Of a stretch of 64,000 nucleotides of DNA, positions 39,727 to 40,216 are shown piece by piece. A program made the position numbers and the translations under genes. Location: the NCBI GenBank assembly GCA_033648345.1, contig GCA_033648345.1_4121.1; one strand, given 5' to 3'. Within the stretch, counting starts at the first letter, position 1, and each line of letters starts with the position of its first letter. The notes under the pieces were generated by a model. That model worked only from the letters and a program-made list of their open reading frames with translations, was not told where the DNA came from and did not search any database. The DNA comes from a phage.

Positions 39727-39735
39727 TGAAAAAGC

Positions 39736-39763
39736 TTGACTAAATAGTTCAGTACTGTATAAT
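39736..39763 (+). promoter_or_regulatory. early promoter (copy A of a 43-bp duplicated cassette)
   Basis: cTTGACTaaatagttcagtactgTATAATg; 43 bp identical to 40155..40197. Confidence 0.6.
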
Positions 39764-39794
39764 GTTTGTATCTTAACTTATATGGCAACTTGAT

Positions 39795-40160
39795 ATGTTT
39801 AGTGAATATGAAGAAGCAATAAAACACAACATTGAAGATTCACATAACTTCCAATTTTATAATTGGGATGAACTAATGAAATTGTACTTACAGTGGGTTG
39901 AAGATGAAGAAACTTCTGAACAACGAACTGTTATGTTAAACATTTCGTTACGTAAAGACCTTAGTTCAATTAGTGTTGAAGTTATGACATCTTCAACTTA
40001 TGCAGAAGAAGATCATAATCCCTATGTTTCAGGTACTTCCCCTGTACCAAAGACTGAAGAAGAATATTTTCAAACGAGTACTGTACAAGAACCATTGTTC
40101 ACTTATGAGTTCTATAAGTACTTGATTGGCAAATTCAAAAAAATGCGAATTAATTCTTGA
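39795..40160 (+). CDS. FQxS-module family protein
   Basis: TEEEYFQTSTV. Confidence 0.5.
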   Translation: MFSEYEEAIKHNIEDSHNFQFYNWDELMKLYLQWVEDEETSEQRTVMLNISLRKDLSSISVEVMTSSTYAEEDHNPYVSGTSPVPKTEEEYFQTSTVQEPLFTYEFYKYLIGKFKKMRINS

Positions 40161-40183
40161 CTAAATAGTTCAGTACTGTATAA
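40156..40183 (+). promoter_or_regulatory. early promoter (copy B of the duplicated cassette)
   Basis: Identical 43-bp cassette; -35 overlaps stop codon of 39795..40160. Confidence 0.6.
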
Positions 40184-40216
40184 TGTTTGTATCTTAACAA
40201 CAGAAGGTATATTGAA

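Follow-up and report, generated by a model that had tools for sequence, protein, structure and literature searches.

The 43-mer CTTGACTAAATAGTTCAGTACTGTATAATGTTTGTATCTTAAC and its diverged relatives in a RaK2-like jumbo coliphage probably form a family of strong sigma-70 promoters that double as homology patches for the shuffling of small modules. The stretch analysed (64,000 nucleotides, hereafter the window) is Asteriusvirus DNA, that is, DNA of a 121Q/RaK2-like phage as judged from its relatives by megablast; members of this genus are jumbo myoviruses of 350-385 kb, kin of Klebsiella phage RaK2. When positions 39000-43000 were searched by megablast, 66 phage records matched, the nearest being Escherichia phages WPEC3, BF17, EC.P1 and WPEC5, followed by the 121Q/PBECO4 group. 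None of the 66 covered 80% of that stretch, and the matches were broken into 2-6 pieces per record; the stretch is thus mosaic among close relatives. Five cassette copies lie inside 2.5 kb of this most mosaic part, a tRNA/ORFan hyperplastic region, and they stand ahead of ORFans, so that the setting proposed by the first-pass annotation was upheld. The + strand carries 121 of the 125 greedy ORF calls in the window. A Pfam scan of three small proteins of the region (the 121-aa and 79-aa ORFs headed by cassettes, and a 127-aa ORF at 40927-41310, upstream of copy 4) found no match, and Rfam over 36-47 kb returned tRNAs only.

The 43-mer occurs exactly twice in the window, at 39735-39777 and 40156-40198 (shuffles expect none), and all cassette copies described here are on the + strand. 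The duplication had been reported earlier with its identity and first position as found here; its second copy begins one base further on than the 40155-40197 given then. Identity breaks off at both borders (g/t before, t/a after), and the genes behind the two copies (121 aa and 79 aa) are unrelated; the repeated unit is therefore a promoter-sized patch and no gene duplication. Copy 1 (-35 TTGACT at 39736-39741, -10 TATAAT at 39758-39763) has a 16-nt spacer that includes TTCAGTACTG and heads the 121-aa ORF at 39795-40160, while copy 2 (-35 at 40157-40162, -10 at 40179-40184) heads the 79-aa ORF at 40217-40456. Each repeat had also been said to begin within the stop codon of the preceding gene. 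This is true of copy 2, whose -35 hexamer includes the TGA of ORF 39795-40160, but not of copy 1, as ORF 39562-39726 stops 9 nt before the repeat; at copy 4 the -35 hexamer (41303) likewise takes in the TAA that ends ORF 40927-41310. Immediately upstream of copy 1, three tandem 161-bp repeats (39240-39726) give three paralogous 54-aa ORFs.

Five related versions exist, at 40535, 41303 (given earlier as 41304), 42182 (given earlier as 42180), 58496 and 62458, as had been claimed, except that the one at 42182 has no -35 and that the spacer motif at 62458 reads tAGTACTG instead of cAGTACTG. Copy 3 (40526-40568) consists of AGTACT, TTGAAT at 40535, 17 nt and TATAAT at 40558-40563; its two AGTACT sites, 20 bp apart, flank the -35 on both sides, and it heads an unannotated, conserved RNA-like element of about 185 nt (40565-40751). 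Between copies 2 and 3 lies a decayed copy (TAAAAAGAACTTTACTAAATAATTCCACTGG...; 40459-40528, decayed part 40459-40498), followed by a 9-codon ORF remnant, which looks like the scar of an earlier rearrangement. Copy 4 (41294-41336; AGTACT, TTGACT at 41303, 17 nt, TAAAAT at 41326-41331) heads tRNA-Ser(gct) at 41338-41427, with the -10 ending 7 nt ahead of the tRNA. Copy 5 (42181-42195, cited at 42182) is truncated to CAGTACTGATATAAT and, having no -35, may be inactive. Outside the cluster, copy 6 (58496-58535) reads TTGACA-16-TATAAT plus GTTTATATCAAA, and copy 7 (62458-62485), also TTGACA-16-TATAAT, stands ahead of ORF 62533-62859. A sequence match further identified a promoter at 14687-14715 (+ strand; TTGACAGTACTG) with AGTACT over its -35. 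By direct reading, the sub-family core TTGACTAAATAG holds a stop in each of the three frames (TGA, TAA, TAG), so that any ORF joined upstream is terminated.

Several neighbouring elements deserve mention in their own right. The 185-nt element, which is structured and begins where transcription from cassette 3 is predicted to start, has copies of 81-91% identity in the tRNA clusters of unrelated phages, namely Proteus PM2 (Straboviridae), Proteus phage 1 (Demerecviridae) and RaK2; it had no Rfam match and is probably a stable RNA of no known family. A further segment (40761-40915), with a hairpin plus U8 as its end, directly adjoins a cassette in the JNE01 genome. Downstream of the truncated cassette, a tRNA-like element at 42208-42285 (GGCCCTG/CAGGGCC acceptor stem, odd T-loop, ACCA end) was called by neither ARAGORN nor Rfam. 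At the left of the region, a gene for a PD-(D/E)XK endonuclease (PF11645; 38726-39130) sits where WPEC3, BF17 and EC.P1 have tRNA-Ser, and the adjoining weak tRNA at 39137-39215 (Rfam 32.6 bits; missed by ARAGORN) occupies the position of the 121Q tRNA-Leu(taa).

We infer that the cassettes are sigma-70 type promoters from their 11-12 of 12 consensus positions, 16-17 nt spacers, A-tract, intergenic position, co-orientation and membership in a one-strand promoter set. The hexamers TTGACT or TTGACA and TATAAT are 16 nt apart in copies 1, 2, 6 and 7, and a 17-nt spacer separates TTGAAT/TATAAT in copy 3 and TTGACT/TAAAAT in copy 4. A-tracts (AAAAAG, AAAAAAGTA) lie immediately upstream of the -35, at about -40 to -46. 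Every copy, be it intergenic or over a stop codon, is followed at 7-90 nt by an ORF, a tRNA or an RNA-like element and is co-oriented with all downstream genes and RNAs. A motif search of the whole window (at least 11 of 12 matches to TTGACA-16/18-TATAAT) recovered 31 near-consensus promoters on the + strand, cassettes included, and none on the - strand, against about 2.4 expected per strand in dinucleotide shuffles; many of the + strand sites lie within the 3' ends of upstream ORFs. The cassettes would fire early from E-sigma70. In the RaK2-like phage CBB, predicted RpoD-like promoters with UP-like elements are clustered among short, presumably early ORFs (PMC5259590), and our literature search returned nothing relevant on transcript mapping or transcriptomes of any Asteriusvirus. 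The CBB/GAP32 promoters (Buttimer et al. 2017, PMC5259590) resemble the cassettes in phage group, sigma-70 consensus and clustering at short early-type ORFs; they differ in that they are described there as predicted promoters only, with no repeat family, junction role or palindrome. A terminator scan found no terminator-like site at the cassettes, and six 101-nt cassette regions folded no better than shuffles (z +0.69 to -1.87), the sole hairpin seen being a weak, AU-rich AGUACU...AGUACU pairing over the -35 of copies 3 and 4.

Gene order in relatives identifies the cassettes as module junctions, which bears out the earlier suggestion of a portable module and recombination substrate. Homologous regions were compared by blastn with 11 relatives in total, nine of them for the clustered cassettes. 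Against these nine, homology blocks end or begin at 39737, 40176-40185, 40527-40534, 41293/41331 and 42187, which puts block borders at each of the five clustered cassettes; five relatives lose homology precisely at 42187. Block ends within 10 bp of the five cassettes numbered 20 of 123 internal ends against 2.5 expected (about 8-fold); since relatives share ancestry, block ends from different relatives are not independent events, and the same test by clusters gave 6 of 50 (p about 0.002). The region has many further breakpoints that do not fall at cassettes (39131, 43178-43188, tRNA ends).

When all cassettes were listed in ten genomes, one conserved core, TTGACTAAATAGTTCAGTACTG(A)TAWAAT, was found with different partners, at least five left flanks being joined combinatorially to at least seven right flanks in the 10 phages. 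What follows the end of the 121-aa gene, for instance, is the 79-aa gene in three phages (the window, BF17 and ph0011), the RNA-like element in another three (WPEC3, WPEC5 and EC.P1) and a third sequence in JNE01. Likewise, the end of ORF 40927-41310 is joined to either of two different tRNA-Ser genes, and the end of the NUMOD4-HNH gene (41649-42173) to tRNA-Ser or the tRNA-like element.

In three junctions, the shorter genome holds one chimeric cassette or a deletion within shared cassette sequence. WPEC3, WPEC5 and EC.P1 have a single chimeric cassette in place of the window's 40157 and 40535 cassettes and the intervening gene, its left part being that of the 40157 cassette and its right part that of the 40535 cassette; the two alignments overlap by 30 bp at the WPEC3 chimera. 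Conversely, vB_Ec-M-J and PBECO4 carry an extra 279-bp gene between two promoters that share GTATAATGTTTATATCAAA, and copy 6 of the window (58496) is the single chimera of the promoters flanking that gene. At copy 5 (42182), relative to JNE01, 27 bp have been lost between two CAGTACTGA repeats. No rearrangement was seen at copy 7 in the relatives examined, and 56.5-64 kb is largely collinear with them. An IMG/VR scan with a 22-nt core matched 121Q itself only.

The spacer of the cassettes contains AGTACT within the octamer CAGTACTG, and the motif cagtactg had been taken as part of the promoter signature. This claim had to be abandoned: AGTACT occurs 171 times in the window (1-64000, one copy in the cassette spacer; extended symmetric consensus TTCAGTACTGAA), against 21.5 expected from composition or 17.7 from dinucleotides (about 8-10-fold), and CAGTACTG 41 times against 0.6 (about 70-fold). 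They are the top 6-mer and the top 8-mer of the window, and this excess throughout the window means that the palindrome is no signature of cassette promoters. AGTACT is found in all three frames (68, 31 and 52 sites) and in non-coding DNA (20 sites); of 115 Ser-Thr pairs, 68 are written AGT-ACT where codon usage predicts 17, and Ser-Thr and Val-Leu are the most enriched dipeptides in the window. A positional role of AGTACT in genes was rejected, as its density is flat along them apart from a dip over the 30 nt that precede starts. Spacing is slightly evener than random, and variants with one mismatch occur at 0.5-3.1 times expectation versus about 10-fold for the exact site. At 84.6% identity to 121Q, 60% of the AGTACT sites of the window are conserved versus 41% of all hexamers, and gains and losses between the two are numerous.

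The distribution over all frames and non-coding DNA, together with the Ser-Thr pairs, rules out codon usage or composition as the source of the excess, and G+C content was rejected as well, as T4, of the same G+C, has 12 sites against 17 expected. A VSP-like repair or deamination signature was also discarded: the one-mismatch variants have no special C/T pattern, and differences between the window and 121Q are spread across the positions of the site. AGTACT is no general breakpoint motif either, as breakpoints outside cassettes are not near it.

The mechanism that we favour takes the 43-mer to be the core of a promoter family of sigma-70 type, strong, presumably early and read by host RNA polymerase, each copy of which would head a small module (one ORF, tRNA or small RNA-like element). 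With 20-43 bp of near-identical, like-oriented sequence in common, the copies would act as short homology patches; recombination between two of them, in one genome or between co-infecting relatives, would delete, insert or exchange the module in between and leave a functional chimeric promoter. CAGTACTG would be carried along in the spacer as one copy of the genome-wide palindrome, or might alternatively be tolerated there since its TG can act as an extended -10. Crossovers within shared sequence argue for the use of homology or microhomology over random joining followed by selection, and we infer that homology, not selection alone, sets the crossover positions. Breakpoints at promoters could also result from selection of viable recombinants, and selection surely contributes to junction placement. 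In another explanation, the units would be moron-like, that is, genes carrying their own promoter, joined by random illegitimate recombination of which only breaks between units are selected. Such units would account for breakpoints at gene or tRNA ends without a cassette (38707, 39131, 43178-43188, 43770 and 43853), but in three junctions the crossover lies inside sequence common to both parental sites (the 30-bp overlap in WPEC3, 19 bp at 58517-58535 and the 9 bp of CAGTACTGA at 42182), and we consider this explanation quite unlikely. Even less probable, to the point of being hard to sustain, is that free-standing homing endonuclease genes drive the mosaicism by cleavage and flank co-conversion, with the cassettes as bystanders. 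The NUMOD4-HNH and PF11645 genes are indeed present or absent among relatives, with breaks at 41572-41620/42187 and 38707/39131, respectively; however, the indels at 40185/40534 and 58517-58535 have no endonuclease gene, the HNH insertion has its own right end within a cassette, and the flanks formed by ORF 40927-41310 and the HNH gene swap partners at the cassette core.

A different kind of alternative concerns the spacer, which might be an operator at which a dimeric phage or host protein binds TTCAGTACTGAA and represses the promoters, for instance in early shut-off; regulation, and not use as a recombination patch, would in that case be what keeps the repeat conserved. The symmetric flanks of the palindrome (TT C AGTACT G AA) are those expected for a dimeric binder, neighbouring AGTACT sites 20-22 bp apart are in excess (13 versus 4.0 expected), and in copies 3 and 4 the -35 is flanked by a pair of sites at a distance of 20 bp. 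Moreover, the hexamer is kept in 33 of 35 family members, and AGTACT within strong promoters nearly always either abuts the -10 or overlaps the -35 (TTGACAGTACT), the latter placement, as at 14687, being found also three times in 121Q. Yet ORFs contain the palindrome about once per 375 bp, in each of the three frames, whereas it abuts the -10 in only four of the 31 strongest promoters of the window (in a fifth, at 14687, it overlaps the -35), to which three weaker or truncated cassette copies may be added. Copies alike in the position of AGTACT are also alike in the remaining spacer, and common descent suffices to account for its presence there. With no known binder, and with the junction structures left unexplained, we regard an operator as unlikely, and the reading of the cassettes as promoters that serve as homology patches is retained.

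Shuffling mediated by promoters is a concept already known from T4-type phages, where promoter-early stem-loop cassettes (PeSLs; Arbiol et al. 2010, PMC2839356; Comeau et al. 2014, PMC4122927) were described in RB49/phi1 and later in T4/PST and KVP40/nt-1. PeSLs comprise a repeated strong sigma-70-like promoter, an AT-rich upstream part and a stem-loop, they lie in hyperplastic regions, and their promoter activity was shown experimentally; their indels are bounded by two copies and leave a chimeric copy (PMC2839356, PMC4122927). Excised mini-circles with a single chimeric cassette count among the marks of a PeSL. Both systems repeat a strong sigma-70-like promoter with AT-rich DNA upstream, placed in hyperplastic regions ahead of ORFans and often overlapping the upstream stop codon; in both, close relatives differ by single-gene indels that have a copy at either end, the shorter genome retaining one chimera. 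In contrast to PeSLs, the Asteriusvirus cassettes have no stable stem-loop or terminator, belong to a RaK2-like jumbo phage and not to Straboviridae, hold a genome-wide palindrome in their spacer and provide three-frame stops in their core. Since the defining stem-loop is absent, we liken the cassettes to PeSLs in action yet do not class them as such; they are best described as a promoter-only variant of PeSL-like logic in a different phage group.

The enrichment of AGTACT extends to other RaK2-like phages, being common to Asteriusvirus, Alcyoneusvirus and Mimasvirus: 162 sites against 16.7 expected in 121Q (150-200 kb), 96 against 17 in RaK2 (50-100 kb, a structural/replication region) and 112 against 13.5 in GAP32 (60-100 kb). 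In 40 kb of PA5oct there is one site, and enrichment is absent in samples of T4 (12 against 16.7) and of E. coli K-12 (3 against 11.6), the site density being about 45 times that of the host sample. Within 121Q, the 7.6 kb at 161.8-169.4 kb have no AGTACT at all, against a genome average of one per about 310 bp, and may be recently acquired or differently constrained DNA. In the searchable literature we found no description of an iterated AGTACT/CAGTACTG palindrome, and the papers on RaK2 (PMC3622015) and CBB (PMC5259590) do not mention the motif AGTACT.

Among known sites, that of SlmA in E. coli, GTGAGTACTCAC, is a 12-bp palindrome with a central AGTACT (Tonthat et al. 2011, PMC3020112), and SlmA requires G1, T2, a purine at position 3, A4 and G5 (PMC3020112). 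The phage palindrome shares the central AGTACT, but its sites favour T at position 1 and C at position 3 (G is rarest there, 16 of 171). SlmA was rejected as the binder: none of the 541 phage AGTACT sites in 204 kb (the window plus the 121Q, RaK2 and GAP32 segments) is a full match to GTRAGYRCTYAC, the flanks disagreeing. A LexA box was dismissed on direct reading, as the right half of CTGTATAATGTTTGTA is TGTA and not ACAG. The window does encode a C5 methyltransferase, and RaK2 DNA is reported to have methylated CpG (PMC3622015); AGTACT contains no CpG. The methyltransferase gene (26370-28250) is split by an intein (Hint plus a LAGLIDADG homing endonuclease), an insert missing from the 121Q orthologue (gp91, 286 aa).

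The closest parallel to CAGTACTG, though not to the cassettes, is HIP1 (GCGATCGC), the highly iterated palindrome of cyanobacteria, which is 8 bp long, lies in genes in every frame and is clade-specific. CAGTACTG is likewise a clade-specific palindromic octamer, more than 10-fold over expectation and inside genes in all frames, in the window as in 121Q, RaK2 and GAP32; it differs in its sequence and in belonging to a phage and not to a cell. Our preferred guess, held with low confidence, is that AGTACT is a site for a dimeric phage-encoded protein. More broadly, and only tentatively, for the odds seem to us to be against it, TTCAGTACTGAA may be a previously undescribed iterated site of the enterobacterial RaK2-like jumbo phages (Asteriusvirus, Alcyoneusvirus, Mimasvirus) at which a dimeric phage factor marks or organises the DNA. 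If so, possible roles include self/non-self discrimination, compaction and global transcription control, and the palindromes in promoter spacers, that of the cassette included, would couple promoters to that factor. If the density of about one per 375 bp holds, there would be roughly 900 to 1000 AGTACT sites per genome, and selection on AGTACT at the DNA level, if it exists, would be strong enough to push Ser-Thr and Val-Leu to the top of the enriched dipeptides.

Taken as promoters that serve as homology patches, the cassettes would extend promoter-mediated modular shuffling from T4-type phages to 350-kb RaK2-like jumbo phages, with three indels or deletions and several partner swaps as concrete, testable junctions. 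Such shuffling would explain why the tRNA/ORFan region differs between isolates that are otherwise 90-99% identical. As compact, strong and self-terminating (three-frame stop) predicted expression units, the cassettes could also be used for phage engineering. The genome-wide palindrome is an unexpected by-product and maybe the more interesting lead, as it points to a sequence-specific process across the entire phage chromosome and might serve as a simple DNA signature of the RaK2-like clade.
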